Shown here: one piece after another, positions 1,059 through 23,439 of the stretch
Layout: each line of letters opens with the position of its first letter
Numbering within the stretch: the first letter of the stretch is position 1
Virus record (IMG/VR): IMGVR_UViG_3300032285_003957
Coordinates: 1 to 64,000 of that record
Strand: one strand, 5' to 3'
DNA from: a virus
Lineage: Duplodnaviria > Caudoviricetes
DNA length: 64,000 bases
The notes under the pieces: generated by a model
Told to the model about the DNA's origin: nothing
Database searches by the model: none
The model's input: only the letters and a program-made list of their open reading frames with translations
Position numbers and translations under genes: made by a program

Positions 1059-1368
1059 ATTTTTATCTGGTGCAAACACTACCGATTATACAATTCGGCT
1101 AAGAAGATATCATAAGCGTTTATTGAATAGATATTGTGAGGTGTTTAATTTAAACCCTGGCCAACCCAACTATCATGCGGGTTATTTAATATTCAATACA
1201 GTTAATCATTTCATCAATGAGGGACAATTAACTTCTTATGATGAGATTAGAAGATACTACGCCATAGCATATCGTCATTTATCTAATATGGATGATATTA
1301 TAGAGGATTTCGAACATAGCGCATTTATGTATCTTGTGAATTATCCTGAACAAACGGACAACATATAA
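1045..1368 (+). CDS. hypothetical protein, MSTFKFL leader variant
   Basis: ORF track; 14-nt overlap with the previous ORF, as for 164..514/501..818. Confidence 0.8.
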   Translation: MSTFKFLSGANTTDYTIRLRRYHKRLLNRYCEVFNLNPGQPNYHAGYLIFNTVNHFINEGQLTSYDEIRRYYAIAYRHLSNMDDIIEDFEHSAFMYLVNYPEQTDNI

Positions 1369-1386
1369 GCGAGGCGAAGCCGAGCG
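1367..1386 (+). repeat. AGCGA-hairpin-GAGCG element (GGC-GAA-GCC)
   Basis: AAGCGAGGCGAAGCCGAGCG. Confidence 0.8.
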
Positions 1387-1430
1387 GTAATAATTTGTTA
1401 ACATGGAGGTTTTGATATAAAAAACTATTT

Positions 1431-2123
1431 ATGAACATGAGGATACAGGCATTATTCATTTCGGACGTTCATCTTGGTTCCAAAGGCTCAAACGCTGAAC
1501 AAGTTCTACAAATTCTTAAGCATTACCAACCCGAATATCTATTCCTTGTGGGGGATATTGTGGATGGTTGGTTATTAAAGCGCAAATTCCGTTGGCCTCA
1601 GTCGCATACAAATGTATTAAGAAAGATATTATCTTATAGCAAGAACGGAACAAAGGTAATATACATACCAGGCAATCACGATGAGTTTATGCGTGATTAT
1701 GATGATTTTCATTTCGGGAATATTGAGATTCACAATGAGTATATTTGGAATAACACTTATATCACGCACGGAGATTTATACGATGGGGTCGTTAAATTGA
1801 AGTGGTTGGGGATTTTGGGTAGTGTTGGATACGATTTAGCCATCAGTATTGATCGCAGACTAAAATCTTGGGGATATAAGCGAAGTCTATCCAAATTCTT
1901 AAAGGATAAGGTAAAGGAAGCCGTTAAGTTTATAACATCATTTGAGGAGGAGATTGTTCGCCAGGGAATAAAACATAACTGCAGCACCGTTATTTGCGGT
2001 CACATTCATCATCCCGAGGACAAGTTAATTAACAATGTTAGATATTTAAATTCGGGGGATTGGATTGAAAATAACTCATATATCATATACGTAGATGGAG
2101 AATATACCGTTATTAAGGGATAA
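1431..2123 (+). CDS. PlcP/LpxH-like calcineurin-type metallophosphoesterase (UDP-2,3-diacylglucosamine diphosphatase-like)
   Basis: FISDVHLG, LVGDIVDGW, WPQSH, PGNHDEF, HGDLYD, CGHIH, NSGDWIE motifs. Confidence 0.85.
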   Translation: MNMRIQALFISDVHLGSKGSNAEQVLQILKHYQPEYLFLVGDIVDGWLLKRKFRWPQSHTNVLRKILSYSKNGTKVIYIPGNHDEFMRDYDDFHFGNIEIHNEYIWNNTYITHGDLYDGVVKLKWLGILGSVGYDLAISIDRRLKSWGYKRSLSKFLKDKVKEAVKFITSFEEEIVRQGIKHNCSTVICGHIHHPEDKLINNVRYLNSGDWIENNSYIIYVDGEYTVIKG

Positions 2124-2814
2124 TTTAACAATTGTCATTCCGTCGAAGAATGAGGGAATGAATTTATATCATTGTATAAGCAGCATTGCATCGCAGGTTA
2201 TGGGACAGGGGTTGAGGATTATTATTGCGGATTGCAGTGATGAGCGAAAGTCGTTTGATGTATTGGCGGAGATTAAGAGGGATTTTAAGTATTCGTTAAA
2301 TATTGAGATAATTGAGGGTGGATATCCCGCATATGGAAGAAAATCGGGGGCTGATTTGGTAAAGACGCCCTATGTTTTGTTTATGGATGCGGATATTATA
2401 TTATTGGATAGGAGGGTATTAGTGGATTGTTTGAATAAGACCTCGCATTTGACCACAGTTACCTTTTCGACCGATTACGGATACAATTGGATATATGGGG
2501 TTTTCACAAGCGCGCAGAGGGTAATGAAGTTTTTCGGGGATACATTTGCGATTGGTGGTTTTCAACTATTCAGAACGGAGATTTATAATTATACGGGCGG
2601 ATACAATCCAAATCATGTTTTTGCGGAGGATTATTATGTATCCAACAAGATTCATTCGCAGTTTTTTAATATACATAAGACCAAAGGGGTCTATACATCG
2701 GCCAGACGTTTTAAAAACAAGGGTTTATTCTATATGTTGGGCCTAATGATAAAATGTTGGTTCAATAGAAGAAACGAGTCATTTTACATAAAATCGCATA
2801 ACTACTGGAATTAA
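2095..2814 (+). CDS. glycosyltransferase family 2
   Basis: IVIPSKNE, IIIADCS, FMDAD (DxD), EDY, TSARRF. Confidence 0.85.
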   Translation: MENIPLLRDNLTIVIPSKNEGMNLYHCISSIASQVMGQGLRIIIADCSDERKSFDVLAEIKRDFKYSLNIEIIEGGYPAYGRKSGADLVKTPYVLFMDADIILLDRRVLVDCLNKTSHLTTVTFSTDYGYNWIYGVFTSAQRVMKFFGDTFAIGGFQLFRTEIYNYTGGYNPNHVFAEDYYVSNKIHSQFFNIHKTKGVYTSARRFKNKGLFYMLGLMIKCWFNRRNESFYIKSHNYWN

Positions 2815-2815
2815 T

Positions 2816-2911
2816 ATGGGAACAATATTTCCGTGGCTTTTATCATTTACAATGGTGATAGGATTAACTATTATTGTAATGATTGTTGACCACATCACAA
2901 AAAAAAGATAA
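2816..2911 (+). CDS. 31-aa single-TM peptide
   Basis: Manual translation MGTIFPWLLSFTMVIGLTIIVMIVDHITKKR*; fills the gap between genes. Confidence 0.5.
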   Translation: MGTIFPWLLSFTMVIGLTIIVMIVDHITKKR

Positions 2912-3211
2912 ATGTATAAAGAACTTATTGTATTAATATCGCAGACCTTGTATAATATATTCAAGGTATTGGAGATAAAGTATACCTATCAAAACAAGGT
3001 GGGTGCTTTATTATTAAACTCTGTATGGATAAATTTGGTTGCATTGGCTTCCACCTATTATGCCATTGATGATTTATTGAAGGGGAATTTCACCATTATT
3101 ATATTCTATATAACGGGTTCGGTTGTTGGGAAATATGTTGGAATGCAGTTTGGAAACCCAAGAAATCAGGTGTGGAGGAAACTATTTAAACAAAAAAAAT
3201 CACATGAATAA
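2912..3211 (+). CDS. small multi-pass membrane protein
   Basis: Hydrophobic helices, GSVVGKYVGM. Confidence 0.7.
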   Translation: MYKELIVLISQTLYNIFKVLEIKYTYQNKVGALLLNSVWINLVALASTYYAIDDLLKGNFTIIIFYITGSVVGKYVGMQFGNPRNQVWRKLFKQKKSHE

Positions 3212-3363
3212 ATTAATCGGGGAGATTATAACGGTATCAGCTATATGCGTATTATATTATTGGGCGGTTAAATCTTTTATGAAGATGCTTTCAAAAAAAG
3301 GATTATAGCTCATAATTTGGAATTATCGAAAATATTATCTATATTTTTATAAAACACCACAAT

Positions 3364-21703: not shown

Positions 21704-22075
21704 ATGAAGTTTTTGCAACTACTTAGAGAAATGGATGATAACCAAATCGTTAATGATTGGAAGGTTACATCTGTTGGTATTAACGATAGAGGATTTTATA
21801 CCATATCAGAATATTCTGCGGGTAGTGACAGCCTATCCATGTTTCATTTGAAGTTAACCGTATTATATGCCGACAACTATATAGATCCTCAACCCACCTT
21901 TGAAGGGGATGAACAATATTTTGATGATGATGTGAAAGAAGCGGGTATTAATCATTCATATGACTTTATTGGTTACGCTTCCAATGCTCCAACAAAAAAC
22001 TATATTACAGACATTAAATTTAAAGTTATTGATGGTTCGGTGGATTTTGATAATCCAGACGTTTCCCATATGTAA
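21704..22075 (+). CDS. hypothetical protein, MKFLQLLRE leader
   Basis: Start moved; TATTTAT at 21693. Confidence 0.7.
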   Translation: MKFLQLLREMDDNQIVNDWKVTSVGINDRGFYTISEYSAGSDSLSMFHLKLTVLYADNYIDPQPTFEGDEQYFDDDVKEAGINHSYDFIGYASNAPTKNYITDIKFKVIDGSVDFDNPDVSHM

Positions 22076-22128
22076 GATACCTCGGGTTTGAAGACCCGAC
22101 TTAGGACCGGGATGGTTACTTGTCCCGT

Positions 22129-22162
22129 GGGACATGAATTCGCTACTCATGTCCCTTTTTTT
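22129..22162 (+). terminator. intrinsic terminator preceded by two extra hairpins
   Basis: GGGACATGA..TCATGTCCC plus T7. Confidence 0.75.
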
Positions 22163-22185
22163 ATTTTTAGATTATTTATGTAGAT

Positions 22186-22680
22186 ATGGAACAGCAAGTT
22201 AATTGGGATACGGTATTCAATGCGGGAAAAGAAAGATTCCTTGCAGATTTAACCAATCACAAGATTGACCCATCATTGGTTACACAATACGGCACCCCAT
22301 TAATCAATGCATTATATGGCCTTAAACCATATATCATGGCTGACTCATCCAAGGGTGAGGTTATTTCATCCAACACAAAGCAATACGTTCTTAAAACAAT
22401 TCTTCCATCGCTGAATAAATCAATTGATGATTATTGGGCCAACCTTGGTTATATTAAGAAACAATCATTTAAACTATTGTCCAAGAATAATGGGGATAGA
22501 ATACGTGGAGCGATTAGCTCAGCGTTTCTAACATTCATTAATGGATTTCTATGGGGATTGGATTCGACCAAAGCAAAAGGAAACATATGGAACGTGGTGG
22601 ATGACCTAAAAGATTATGTTGGCTACTACGAATCGCCATTTGTTGTTTCCGCCGTTCATAAGATTCAATCATTAACGTAA
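22186..22680 (+). CDS. hypothetical protein
   Basis: ORF track; TATTTAT at 22173. Confidence 0.75.
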   Translation: MEQQVNWDTVFNAGKERFLADLTNHKIDPSLVTQYGTPLINALYGLKPYIMADSSKGEVISSNTKQYVLKTILPSLNKSIDDYWANLGYIKKQSFKLLSKNNGDRIRGAISSAFLTFINGFLWGLDSTKAKGNIWNVVDDLKDYVGYYESPFVVSAVHKIQSLT

Positions 22681-22692
22681 TATTTATATACA

Positions 22693-23397
22693 ATGAACTT
22701 ACAAGAAAATATACATAGAATTAAAACGGTTATGGGCTTGAATGAACAAAAGGCTCCAGCAAAACCTGCAGCCAAGACGGCACCCGCCGCATCACAATCG
22801 GCCGACAATTCGCAACTATTCGTTGAAGCATTAACGCACGCCGCAAATAATATGTTGGCATATGTGAGCCAAGTAAAACCTGGTTTTATCGGTGTTATTA
22901 AAAACAGCAGAGGCGAAACCAAGATTACGTCCAAACAGGAAAGCTACGGACCGCTTGCGGCCACACACGAGATGGAAGTAAGATTTAATGAGGTGACAAA
23001 AACGCCAACATCTAAAGAAGATATTGCATTATTTGATTTAACATTAAAAAATGCGAACGGCGAATTTTCTTATGAGGAACTTACATTCGCAAACGCATTG
23101 CAACAATACAATCAAAAAACATTAACCGTTGCTCGCACAGGTATGACAACATACTCATCCTTGGGTCCTGGTTCATTGCTTATCACCCTTATGAGAATGA
23201 AGTTATCCATGGAGCAAGCAATGAATCTAATGAAAACGGTTGTTCCCGATATTGGCGTGGCCATTATGACCGATTTAACGCAATTGGAATATAATGGTGT
23301 AAGCGCGGCGGAAAAGCAAAAATATCAGGGCCTTATAACGCAATTAACGCCATTGGTAAGTGGTGGACAACAACCCGCAGCTCCGCAGCCTAAGTAA
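22693..23397 (+). CDS. hypothetical protein, LQENIHRIKTVMGLNE leader, Pro/Ala linkers
   Basis: ORF track; TATTTATA at 22681. Confidence 0.8.
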   Translation: MNLQENIHRIKTVMGLNEQKAPAKPAAKTAPAASQSADNSQLFVEALTHAANNMLAYVSQVKPGFIGVIKNSRGETKITSKQESYGPLAATHEMEVRFNEVTKTPTSKEDIALFDLTLKNANGEFSYEELTFANALQQYNQKTLTVARTGMTTYSSLGPGSLLITLMRMKLSMEQAMNLMKTVVPDIGVAIMTDLTQLEYNGVSAAEKQKYQGLITQLTPLVSGGQQPAAPQPK

Positions 23398-23421
23398 GAT
23401 TCATACTCCGGCACCGGGACA

Positions 23422-23439
23422 GCTCGGCTGCGCCTCGCG
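23422..23439 (-). repeat. GCGA-hairpin-GAGC element (GGC-GCA-GCC)
   Basis: Reverse complement CGCGAGGCGCAGCCGAGC. Confidence 0.6.

Follow-up and report, generated by a model that had tools for sequence, protein, structure and literature searches.

In a clade of uncultured giant T4-like phages, a family of short G-C-rich hairpins is retained in one gene-free hub of the genome. The family was characterized in a 64,000-nucleotide stretch of phage DNA (the window) belonging to a 234-kb record, in which it is confined to the first 21 kb. The stem structure is under selection, and the signature of loops and mismatches fits folded single-stranded DNA better than RNA. We regard as established that the family exists and covaries, that its loops and mismatches have statistics of the DNA type, that it is restricted to the hub, and that host genomes lack it. 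By analogy with the RSF1010 ssiA/ssiB sites, the G4 origin, and the N4 hairpin promoters, which are built alike, we tentatively propose, with somewhat less than even confidence, that the hairpins may be initiation signals, in the form of DNA mini-hairpins, in a hub resembling an origin.

The strict pattern AGCGA-N6-30-GAGCG was found seven times in the window (0.27 expected), and none of 100 shuffles reached seven. A preliminary description of this DNA had listed 11 elements. All 11 sites exist at the positions given, but only eight form one family; a ninth (4171+) is a variant, and 4725- and 23422-, which lack the family fold, were dropped as members because they take other folds and have no match to our covariance model, R1. 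Scanning with R1, whose training alignment included all eight window members, so that their scores are not independent, gave these eight sites 12.5 to 41 bits; the variant, like the two dropped sites, had no match. The preliminary description was right that seven sites of mixed orientation cluster within about 820 bp, and the hub holds five sure members, the variant, and one doubtful site (Table 1). The copies share the frame (CC/GGGA)TGAA-G[stem]C-GTA(A/T), and, by information content, the conserved flanks are 5′ TGAA and 3′ GTA(A/T). The words AGCGA and GAGCG, earlier taken as fixed unpaired flanks, are instead the base of the stem, pairing as G-C, C-G, G.A, A.G, and G-C; in minimum free energy folds, GCGAG and CGAGC pair with each other through tandem G.A. 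Relatives carry GGGG/CCCC or GGGAG/CGACC at this place, with all stems of a genome sharing one type. Owing to the G.A-containing pairing and the GGGG/CCCC swaps, AGCGA and GAGCG were abandoned as element borders.

Table 1. Hairpin copies and hub features in the window.
Feature	Position	Strand	Sequence or composition	R1 (bits)	Basis and context
Weak copy outside hub	1366..1395	+	GCGAG-GC-GAA-GC-CGAGC-GGTAATAAT	12.5	Between stop of 1045-1368 and phosphoesterase gene
Non-coding hub	4162..5008	.			ORF map; same architecture in relatives
Variant copy	4168..4206	+	GCGAG-GCG-CTCC-GACA-GGAG-TGG-CGAGC	no match	Takes family fold; directly 3′ of stop of gene 3838-4161; both flanks degenerate
Family member	4242..4284	+	CCTGAA-GCGAG-ACCCTC-GACA-GAGGGG-CGAGC-GTATAAT	31.4	Fold
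DnaA box, one mismatch	4454-4462	-			Pattern scan
GGGGATTG box	4486..4493	+			Inside best-conserved hub stretch
DnaA box, perfect	4550..4558	+	TTATCCACA		Pattern scan
Family member, inner, left of AT-rich tract	4563..4603	-	GGGATGCA-GCGAG-CCACC-GCAA-GGGGG-CGAGC-GTAATAC	30.8	Fold
AT-rich tract	4616..4646	.	At least 27/30 A/T		Between inner hairpin pair
Family member, inner, right of AT-rich tract	4662..4698	+	CCCTGAA-GCGAG-GCC-GATA-GGC-CGAGC-GTAATAC	41.2	
Doubtful site (4725-)	4720..4756	-	GCGAGC words, without family hairpin	no match	Other fold (z -0.09)
DnaA box, second perfect copy	4769-4777				Pattern scan
DnaA box, one mismatch	4792-4800	+			Pattern scan
Family member	4809..4845	+	GGGATGAA-GCGAG-GCC-GATA-GGC-CGAGC-GCATAAT	38.1	
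Family member, right hub border	4955..4995	-	GCGAG-GTCGACC-GAAA-GGG-CGAGC	16.3	5′ flank CGCA, not TGAA; near-identical inner part in L008
Copy outside hub	17497..17533	+		24.9	Spacer of inverted CTGGCA...TGCCAG pair; early intergenic region; antisense to neighboring - strand genes
Copy outside hub	20987..21018	-	CCTGAA-GC-GA-CC-GAA-GG-GA-GC-GTAAT	23.2	Fills gap from stop of 20719-20991 to late promoter of 21022-21279; antisense to both genes
Doubtful site (23422-)	23416..23444	-	CGCGAG-GC-GCA-GC-CGAGCT, without family flanks	no match	Other fold

The nearest-neighbor folding energy of single copies was no better than that of shuffles (z -0.03 to -1.7), so the case for structure rests on covariation. 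Stem, loop, and pair statistics were drawn from 41 distinct hits in relatives. Of their cells, 89% pair, a percentage that is partly built in because the hits were gathered by pairing-requiring patterns and the model, and 61 cells changed on both sides. Neither the pairing nor the covariation was matched by any of 500 shuffles, and when the partner was shifted by one column the score fell from 0.57 to at most 0.13. No such bias is built into the statistics on wobble, loops, and closing pairs, because the first pattern counted G-T as a pair. The loop-closing pair was C-G in 41 of 41 hits, the loop was GNA in 27 and GNNA in 8 (together 35 of 41; GAA in 19), and G-T wobble was absent from all 287 cells of the family stems. 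Covarying stems capped by GAA, GCA, or GNNA had also been noted in the preliminary description, and this was borne out. G.A pairs occupied 20 cells at pairs 3-4 in 10 sequences; these pairs and the G...A caps all lie on the TGAA strand, and the opposite strand would have C.T mismatches. The C-G closure, the GNA/GNNA caps, the lack of G-T wobble, and the one-strand tandem G.A favor a structure of the single-stranded DNA type. The mini-hairpin d(GCGAAAGC) melts at 76.5 °C, compared with 39 °C for its RNA form, and such caps, which bind SSB poorly, are found where the G4 primer starts, within RSF1010 ssiA (as CCGAAGG), and in the promoters of N4 (PMC13037366). CCGAAGG itself is present in many copies of the family.

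The hairpins could instead act in RNA, where they would end, insulate, stabilize, or mark for processing the converging or short transcripts of the hub, with the conserved UGAA and GUA(A/U) tails as binding sites for an RNA-binding protein or a nuclease of phage or host. Transcription of the + and - strands meets precisely at the hub, and the family shares with intrinsic (Rho-independent) terminators a G-C-rich, extragenic hairpin that in some copies directly follows a stop codon. In the window, L131, L138, L140, and L150, the leftmost copy comes after the stop codon of the final + gene, in sense orientation; copy 4955- has the sense orientation relative to gene 5009-5887. RNA, too, can have tandem G.A and GNRA-like caps, and, judged from sequence, UGAA and GUA could extend the helix by G.A, A-U, and A.G. 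However, the true terminators of the same phages differ from the family in T tract, wobble, loop, and orientation. No copy is followed by a T/U tract. Wobble, absent from the family, makes up 9% of the pairs in terminators (at least one G-T in 100 of 203 hairpins), and GNA triloops dominate the family, whereas among 94 hairpin-plus-T-tract terminators, 5 have triloops, 4 have GNA/GNNA loops, and 26 have C-G closure. The orientation of the copies follows the hub rather than the transcript: in 7 of 8 relatives, the copy at the right border runs antisense to the gene next to it, and 17497+ and 20987- are antisense to their neighbors. The family had no Rfam match, even at E up to 10, and the cap is far less stable as RNA than as DNA (PMC13037366). 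We consider an RNA role unlikely.

The hub is bordered on one side by gene 3838-4161, the last on the + strand, and on the other by the 3′ end of gene 5009-5887, the first on the - strand; its part 4436-4622 is conserved at the DNA level in seven relatives. All 71 R1 hits in about 20 relatives fall within the syntenic hub, and a complete 335-kb relative holds three copies, every one in its hub. The number of hub copies (3-7 per genome) and their orientation vary among relatives; the order and polarity of the hub are kept, with DnaA box(es), GGGGATTG, a (-) hairpin, the AT-rich tract, and (+) hairpin(s) in succession. The DnaA box stands at the same relative place in L126, L128, L131, L132, L138, L140, and L150, the GGGGATTG box always lies about 50-110 nt before the inner (-) hairpin, and the TGAA sides of the inner pair face the AT-rich tract. 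Conservation at equivalent positions in related phages, on which the earlier interpretation depended, was found for the hub copies but not for the three window copies outside the hub, which are lineage-specific; these adjoin regulatory sites, which counts against the initiation proposal. CTGGCA/TGCCAG inverted repeats accompany the hairpins in the hub and at 17497.

With the REP/BIME sequences of enterobacteria, the family shares short imperfect palindromes, an asymmetric conserved tail, an extragenic location, and alternating clusters, often between converging genes. The hairpins might accordingly be DNA-shape sites for proteins, as cruciforms or hairpins serving a topoisomerase or gyrase, a junction-binding protein, or a barrier to forks or transcription. 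The BIME-like clustering in alternating orientation within an extragenic zone of converging transcription, and the link to the protein-site-like CTGGCA/TGCCAG inverted repeats, would suit such a role, but a symmetric cruciform needs neither one-strand G.A pairs nor G...A caps, and the single-strand-type tails and fixed hub polarity point to a directional process, so that we regard it as improbable. Selfish miniature palindromes (REP, MITE, or mitochondrial GC-cluster-like) that copy themselves into intergenic DNA without a function for the phage appear highly improbable. An identical 23-nt core recurs at 4666, 4813, and 17501 with differing flanks, and copy 1366+ is missing at the matching place in L125 and L135, where the upstream regions were compared; the variation in hub copy number and orientation and the single stem-base type per genome also agree with self-copying. 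Against it, the copies stay in a syntenic hub of conserved order and polarity, with only three in the 335-kb genome. REPs, moreover, occur by the hundreds, chromosome-wide, together with a RAYT (Y1) transposase, whereas here there is one locus per genome, and no Y1 gene was found in this record or the complete relative by a search whose control was positive in 6 of 14 genomes. Nor is the family pattern enriched in 185,579 prokaryote genomes, which gave 26 scattered single matches against a rough chance estimate of about 150.

The promoters P1-P3 of the N4 virion RNA polymerase have, in common with the family, a short G-C stem (5-7 bp in N4), a 3-nt G...A loop, and a C:G closing pair, and they resist SSB; their extrusion is enabled by the closing pair and the G and A at the loop ends (PMC4496689). 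In both cases, stem bases vary provided that they pair, tails and some positions are conserved, and the hairpin of only one strand is stable (PMC4496689). A purine-strand hairpin, extruded or single-stranded, might serve as the binding site of an RNA polymerase or a primase-like enzyme making short non-coding or primer RNAs in the hub; conserved tails adjoin the stem, yet we judge such promoters decidedly improbable here. The N4 template reportedly has the layout C(+1)-AAAA-stem, which the CC-TGAA-stem of the family resembles. In N4, three promoters lie ahead of early genes at one genome end and serve a giant virion polymerase, whereas the copies here are placed between converging genes, where there is nothing for them to transcribe, and a T7/N4-type polymerase (PF00940) was not found in this record or the complete relative, a weak test as it was absent from control genomes too. 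The stems are also longer (7-11 pairs), often with tandem G.A. If the copies were template-strand promoters, transcription from the outer ones would enter the flanking genes in antisense; in the opposite sense, most copies would have no downstream gene. Early genes have ordinary Bacteroidota-type host promoters, and late genes have TATTTAT.

For the initiation signals that we favor, we infer an origin at the hub, a protein that recognizes the hairpins, and priming as the result. The hairpins would act while the purine-rich strand is single-stranded. Each copy combines three parts: on the 5′ side, a short conserved tail, (CC or GGGA)TGAA; next, a stem of 7-11 pairs, rich in G-C, that is free in sequence if paired, tolerates tandem sheared G.A, and is capped by a C-GNA-G or C-GNNA-G mini-hairpin; and, on the 3′ side, a conserved GTA(A/T). 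Each genome has one hub, presumably cis-acting, whose AT-rich tract is bracketed by one bottom-strand and at least one top-strand hairpin; upon opening of this tract, or under negative supercoiling, the purine-strand hairpins would fold, resist coating by SSB, and offer, with their single-stranded tails, a defined landing and start site for a replication-initiation protein. As candidate readers, we consider a helicase loader or the phage primase of the gp61/DnaG type acting with its helicase. In the observed orientation, synthesis from beside each inner hairpin would cross the AT-rich tract first and then proceed outwards.

This proposal is supported by the single locus per genome with its conserved context of DnaA box, GGGGATTG, and AT-rich tract, as well as by a layout like that of RSF1010 ssiA/ssiB and the DnaG/gp61-type primase encoded by the phage. 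The single-stranded DNA structure-plus-sequence signal for priming, nicking, or packaging suggested earlier is likewise favored by the caps, the C-G closure, the lack of wobble, and the hub context, but two of the supports named for it fail. The GAGCG/AGCGAG words said to recall primosome-assembly sites are not conserved, being a lineage-specific part of the stem, and an HUH route lacks its enzyme because the Y1 transposase was missing from both genomes searched. Several points count against the proposal. A zone between converging gene blocks is more typical of a terminus or terminator than of an origin, and converging transcription would yield positive supercoiling, which opposes extrusion. 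A requirement for hairpins is not known among T4-type primases, and searches with two Pfam models gave no match to AEP/PrimPol or the DnaG zinc ribbon. The leftmost (+) copy departs from a simple two-fork rule, and some relatives carry an extra (-) copy. GC skew tracks gene strand only and is uninformative on replication.

The G4-type origin (G4, St-1, alpha3) likewise places a stable hairpin with a GCGAAAGC-type mini-hairpin, kept free of SSB, beside the start trinucleotide of primase (PMC13037366). It serves a permanently single-stranded genome, host DnaG, and a CTG site, whereas the present genome is double-stranded and its hairpins would be exposed only after opening. The architecture of ssiA/ssiB of RSF1010 (IncQ), sites of the primase RepB′, also compares with that of the family: a short specific 5′ single-stranded tail precedes a capped G-C hairpin, there of about 21 nt with a CCGAAGG cap (PMC8567376, PMC13037366). 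RSF1010 oriV has one ssi site per strand, and primase binds six nt 5′ of the 21-nt hairpin and begins synthesis at a GTG triplet on its 3′ side (PMC8567376). These sites lie beside an AT-rich part of the origin that is opened by the initiator, an arrangement similar to that of the hub (PMC8567376, PMC13037366). RSF1010 is a small plasmid with two sites, unlike these jumbo T4-like phages with 3-7 copies, and no RepB′-type primase was identified here, the phage primase being of the DnaG/gp61 type. By this analogy, the putative initiation triplet on the 3′ side would be GTA instead of GTG; it abuts the stem here and lies a few nt (3-5) away in RSF1010.

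The hairpin family is real and conserved and, as far as the searches made here reach, previously undescribed. The preliminary description had read it as fixed AGCGA and GAGCG words flanking a variable mini-hairpin at 11 sites. All 11 sites were found in the sequence, seven of them within 4171-4988 in mixed orientation, and the strict AGCGA/GAGCG pattern occurred seven times against 0.27 expected, a count that none of 100 shuffles equaled and that is confined to the first 21 kb of the whole record. Sites 4725- and 23422- lack the family fold and are not matched by the covariance model of the family (R1). 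The words GCGAG and CGAGC turned out not to be unpaired flanks: they pair as G-C, C-G, G.A, A.G, and G-C; under the energy model, too, the outer two pairs close, with a 2x2 G.A loop between them and the rest of the stem. Nor are the words fixed, as relatives carry GGGG/CCCC or GGGAG/CGACC at the stem base in place of GCGAG/CGAGC.

Relatives were collected in several rounds. A first scan with AGCGAG...CGAGCGTAAT was too loose and returned 119 loci, mostly single chance matches, although the first relatives came from it. A subsequent search with the neighboring phosphoesterase protein gave 80 related loci, some on contigs of 297-336 kb. About 20 of these, with more than roughly 80% protein identity, have clusters of family hairpins; where the phosphoesterase was less than about 80% identical, none of these hairpins was found within 10 kb of that gene. 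A second scan added copies in other jumbo contigs. The alignment revealed a conserved frame, (CC or GGGA)TGAA-G[stem]C-GTA(A/T)(T/A)A, in which the information content is 1.6-2.0 bits per position for TGAA and 1.1-1.4 for GTA, with no conservation farther out. R1 detected eight copies in the window, all of which belong to its training set, and 71 in relatives. The record has seven R1 matches at E<=1, or eight with the weak copy 1366+, none of them beyond the first 21 kb of the 234-kb sequence, and scanning its other 170 kb with R1 gave no copies. The hairpins are 17-26 nt long in hub copies and relatives, and the shortest is the 15-nt ectopic window copy 20987-. Rfam covariance models gave no family at gathering score in 1-25 kb, and between 3900 and 5200 a search at E up to 10 returned a single match at chance level (E 4.6).

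Structure statistics were computed on 41 distinct hits from relatives. Pairing was seen in 89% of cells, a percentage inflated by the fitting of the alignment to the model; the double-sided changes are not inflated in this way, and they amounted to 61 cells compared with 16 in shuffles, a figure that none of 500 shuffles reached. The covariation score was 0.57, compared to 0.11 in shuffles and at most 0.15 when the partners were slid. The hairpin structure is thus under selection. Folding energies of single copies were no better than those of shuffles; the nearest-neighbor model gives these caps no credit.

The main rival to a DNA signal is an RNA role of the hairpins, and as a control we compared the family with hairpins followed by a T tract (terminators) from the same genomes. 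The loop-closing pair is C-G in all 41 relatives but in only 26 of 94 control terminators. Loops are GNA in 27 of 41 (GAA 19, GTA 4, GGA 2, GCA 2) and GNNA in eight, whereas the controls have triloops in 5/94 and GNA or GNNA loops in 4/94. A loop that starts with G and ends with A, as in a sheared G.A pair, is present in 35 of 41 relatives and in all nine window members, the variant included. G-T wobble was absent (0/287 cells, and none in full stems), an absence not built in by the first collecting pattern, which counted G-T as a pair; in the controls, 9% of pairs are G-T and 100 of 203 hairpins have at least one. Tandem G.A is frequent at pairs 3-4 or beside the cap, for example in GACC-GNA-GGGA. 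It is always the strand bearing TGAA that holds the G...A caps and the G.A pairs; the complement would have C.T mismatches. DNA mini-hairpins of this kind, d(GCGAAGC) and d(GCGAAAGC), are very stable (Tm 76.5 C, compared with 39 C for r(GCGAAAGC)), bind SSB poorly, and are found at the G4 primer start, at RSF1010 ssiA (CCGAAGG), and in N4 promoters (PMC13037366). Extrusion of the N4 hairpins at physiological supercoiling is made possible by the C:G closing pair together with the terminal G and A of the loop, and the hairpin is stable on one strand only (PMC4496689). CCGAAGG is present in many family copies. This evidence argues with moderate strength, not conclusively, that the purine strand folds as DNA. 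If the family acts as RNA instead, it would be a new phage RNA motif.

Several known elements were considered and rejected. An ordinary terminator does not fit, because the T tract is missing, the orientation is wrong, and the control statistics differ: no T/U tract was found 3' of the hairpin, where the flank reads GTA(A/T)(T/A)A. For CUGAAG...CGUAAU as a hammerhead, kink-turn, or sarcin-ricin motif, the Rfam search yielded nothing, and the sequence agrees with none of the conserved cores of these motifs. A duplex site of a dimeric protein was excluded, since the stems covary freely and the stem sequence is not conserved. The TATAAT/TAATAC flank could have indicated a sigma-70-type promoter; however, early genes use Bacteroidota-type promoters and late genes TATTTAT, so TATAAT-like words beside the hairpins do not represent ordinary host promoters. 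With lengths between 15 and 26 nt, the hairpins cannot serve as a fixed promoter spacer, and most copies have no downstream gene.

In relatives, every match lies in the hub, a non-coding region of 0.5-0.9 kb between a + block and a - (early) block of genes; a complete relative of 335,630 bp contains three, none of them outside the hub. The order of elements is conserved. Often a (+) hairpin directly follows the last + gene, then come one or more DnaA boxes, which in most relatives match TTATCCACA perfectly. Next is a GGGGATTG box, located where the hub is best conserved, and then a (-) hairpin; an AT-rich segment containing GTAATAC/GTCATAC words follows, and last are one to three (+) hairpins with TTGCCA(G/A) sites before the 3' end of the first - gene. 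In the window as in relatives, an inner (-)/(+) hairpin pair flanks an AT-rich tract, with DnaA boxes next to it. In seven of eight relatives, the copy at the right border runs antisense to the gene that it adjoins, which shows that orientation tracks the hub and not the incoming transcript. A role as promoter for genes is contradicted by these positions, as the hub copies are placed where genes converge and the one at the right border adjoins the 3' end of a gene. The genes flanking the hub vary among relatives. In L140, one of the relatives' loci, an open frame of about 130 codons (11872-12264) crosses the left-border hairpin and stops at a TAA within the conserved GTAAT flank, so the element can overlap a coding end. 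In the 335-kb relative (L150), the gene immediately left of the hub ends in a Cys-rich CxCxCG...SCGC tail (about 17050-17234) that resembles a homing-endonuclease zinc finger.

Systems that use hairpins in single-stranded DNA offer parallels. N4 hairpin promoters share with the family a short G-C stem, a 3-nt G...A loop, and a C:G closing pair (PMC4496689), but they precede the genes they drive, and the hub hairpins do not. A T7/N4-like RNA polymerase model (PF00940) had no match in the 234-kb record or the complete relative; this is a weak test, as the model matched no control genome either. In RSF1010, the primase binds 6 nt on the 5' side of a 21-nt hairpin, and its start site is a GTG triplet on the 3' side; oriV has one single-strand initiation (ssi) site per strand, exposed once an AT-rich region opens (PMC8567376). 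The family has the same arrangement on one strand, with a specific 5' TGAA tail, a covarying, capped hairpin of 17-26 nt, and a 3' GTA triplet, and its copies lie on opposite strands around an AT-rich tract by DnaA boxes. RSF1010 has a dedicated RepB'-type (AEP) primase; the primase found in this phage is of the DnaG/gp61 type. Neither the Prim-Pol model PF09250 (searched in the record and the complete relative) nor a DnaG zinc ribbon model gave a match.

Judged from this layout, single-strand initiation signals would fit best, and the category that suits the family best is that of mini-hairpin initiation signals in single-stranded DNA. We infer that the hub may be a replication origin and that the hairpins may form in vivo. 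In this orientation, a strand begun at an inner hairpin would pass through the AT-rich tract and then become the leading strand of the fork on the far side; the outcome could be priming, helicase loading, or short transcripts, and the putative hairpin-reading protein could be the phage-encoded DnaG/gp61-type primase, the candidate enzyme under this model. Three observations count against initiation: the hub lies between converging genes, GC skew tracks gene strand only and is uninformative on an origin, and some copies break the two-fork rule. A bolder proposal, which we consider rather unlikely, is that T4-like jumbo phages of Bacteroidota (an uncultured clade) start replication at a single DnaA-box origin, where arrays of mini-hairpin ssi signals (TGAA-stem-GTA) bring in the gp61-type primase-helicase that the phage encodes, or its loader, the tandem G.A stem base being a lineage-specific recognition feature that co-evolves with the reader protein. 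If true, large double-stranded DNA phages would have an ssi mechanism in the style of plasmids and microviruses, of which no case has been described among them.

To our knowledge, next to nothing has been established about replication origins or further cis-acting DNA signals in uncultured jumbo phages and in T4-like phages of Bacteroidota. The family offers a sharply defined candidate of about 35 nt, with conserved and free positions known, within a hub of roughly 800 bp. So far, the very stable C-GNA-G mini-hairpin underlies a small set of natural signals (G4 origin, IncQ ssi sites, N4 promoters); if the family acts in single-stranded DNA, this set would extend to large double-stranded DNA phages. 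The analysis also provides a simple computational rule for separating DNA-level from RNA hairpins in raw sequence: wobble-free stems, tolerated tandem G.A, and a C-G-closed GNA cap.

Copies outside the hub number three and occur in this genome only. Copy 1366+ is missing in two relatives' loci (L125 and L135), where the sequence upstream of the corresponding gene is similar in other respects. Copy 17497+ is antisense and lies in the spacer of a CTGGCA...TGCCAG inverted pair of the kind that precedes early promoters, and 20987- takes up precisely the space from a stop codon to a late promoter and is antisense to the genes on both sides. An identical 23-nt core at 4666, 4813, and 17501 indicates that hairpins are occasionally copied to new sites. 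A HUH/Y1 transposase route was rejected, as no Y1 gene (PF01797) was found in the record or the complete relative, while the same search matched 6 of 14 control genomes. REP/BIME elements with a RAYT fit poorly on the same count and because the copies are not dispersed over the genome. A repeat of host genomes was likewise discarded: across 185,579 prokaryote genomes the GGGG-type pattern was matched 26 times, always singly and at scattered places, which is at or below chance. The general idea of a structural signal in single-stranded DNA survives from the preliminary description, but its specific anchors, namely the AGCGA/GAGCG words, the HUH likeness, and the resemblance to primosome-assembly sites, do not.

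The window makes up the first 64 kb of a 234,116-bp IMG/VR virus record, about 70% complete, with 33% G+C. Its major capsid gene is T4-type, with Flavobacterium myophages as closest cultured relatives, to which DNA similarity is weak; only this gene led to Flavobacterium phages, and when 1-12 kb was compared by megablast with 50,697 phage records, nothing matched. The early genes occupy 5-19 kb on the - strand, and because their promoters match the Bacteroidota consensus TTTG-N20-TAnnTTTG, the host is probably a member of Bacteroidota. At late genes, TATTTAT(A) lies 4-7 nt 5' of the ATG, and the word is found upstream of 64 of the record's 228 genes (about 12-fold enriched). It is likely a late promoter giving leaderless or almost leaderless mRNAs; TATTTAT is the reverse complement of T4's TATAAATA.

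Features of the phage genome, in window coordinates unless a record (G000, the 234-kb record) or locus (L275) is named
Feature	Position (strand)	Details
Six near-identical early promoters	10269-10352, 14655-14929, 15868-16551, 16936-17636, 18027-18303, 18709-19001 (-)	ATTTGTGTATAT..TATTTGATTTACnTTTG/A, fits TTTG-N20-TAnnTTTG
TATTTAT(A), examples	21017, 22170, 23455, 27760
TTGCCAG-N-AAA(C/G)T sites, examples	6216, 6415, 8414, 10483-10582, 13531, 13583, 15107, 16248/16275, 17487/17529, 18202, 18856
DnaA-box word	18780-18830	TGTGGATAA twice, other end of early block
DnaA-box word	near 19.7 kb (19700-19720)	TGTGGATAA again, beside long G/C runs, other end of early block
DnaG/gp61-type primase	G000 186215-187228 (L275 2716-3729)	DNAG_N, E 6e-08
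N6/N4 DNA methylase	G000 190217-191068 (L275 6718-7569)	E 5e-45
Second calcineurin-like phosphoesterase	L275 4592-5401
GOLLD RNA	59003-59411 (-)	full-length match (RF02032, 302.7 bits, E 1e-85), adjoins tRNA cluster
tmRNA, phage-borne	56723-57119 (-)	RF00023, 83 bits
13 tRNA genes	60886-63116 (-)	single array
Glycosyltransferase and methyltransferase gene run	42461-49579	GlcNAc-type glycosyltransferase, TylF-like methyltransferase fused to HtrL, TET-associated glycosyltransferase-like domain

About 20 copies of the word TTGCCAG-N-AAA(C/G)T are present in 4-19 kb (4880-18862), and in this extended form it is found nowhere else in the 234 kb. The copies are often arranged as inverted pairs, CTGGCA-N22-37-TGCCAG, with a terminator on one side and a host-type early promoter on the other. 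The word looks like the operator of an early regulator. The TTGCCA(G/A) sites that flank hub hairpins in relatives are similar to this early-region word. The run of glycosyltransferase and methyltransferase genes hints at DNA or virion modification.
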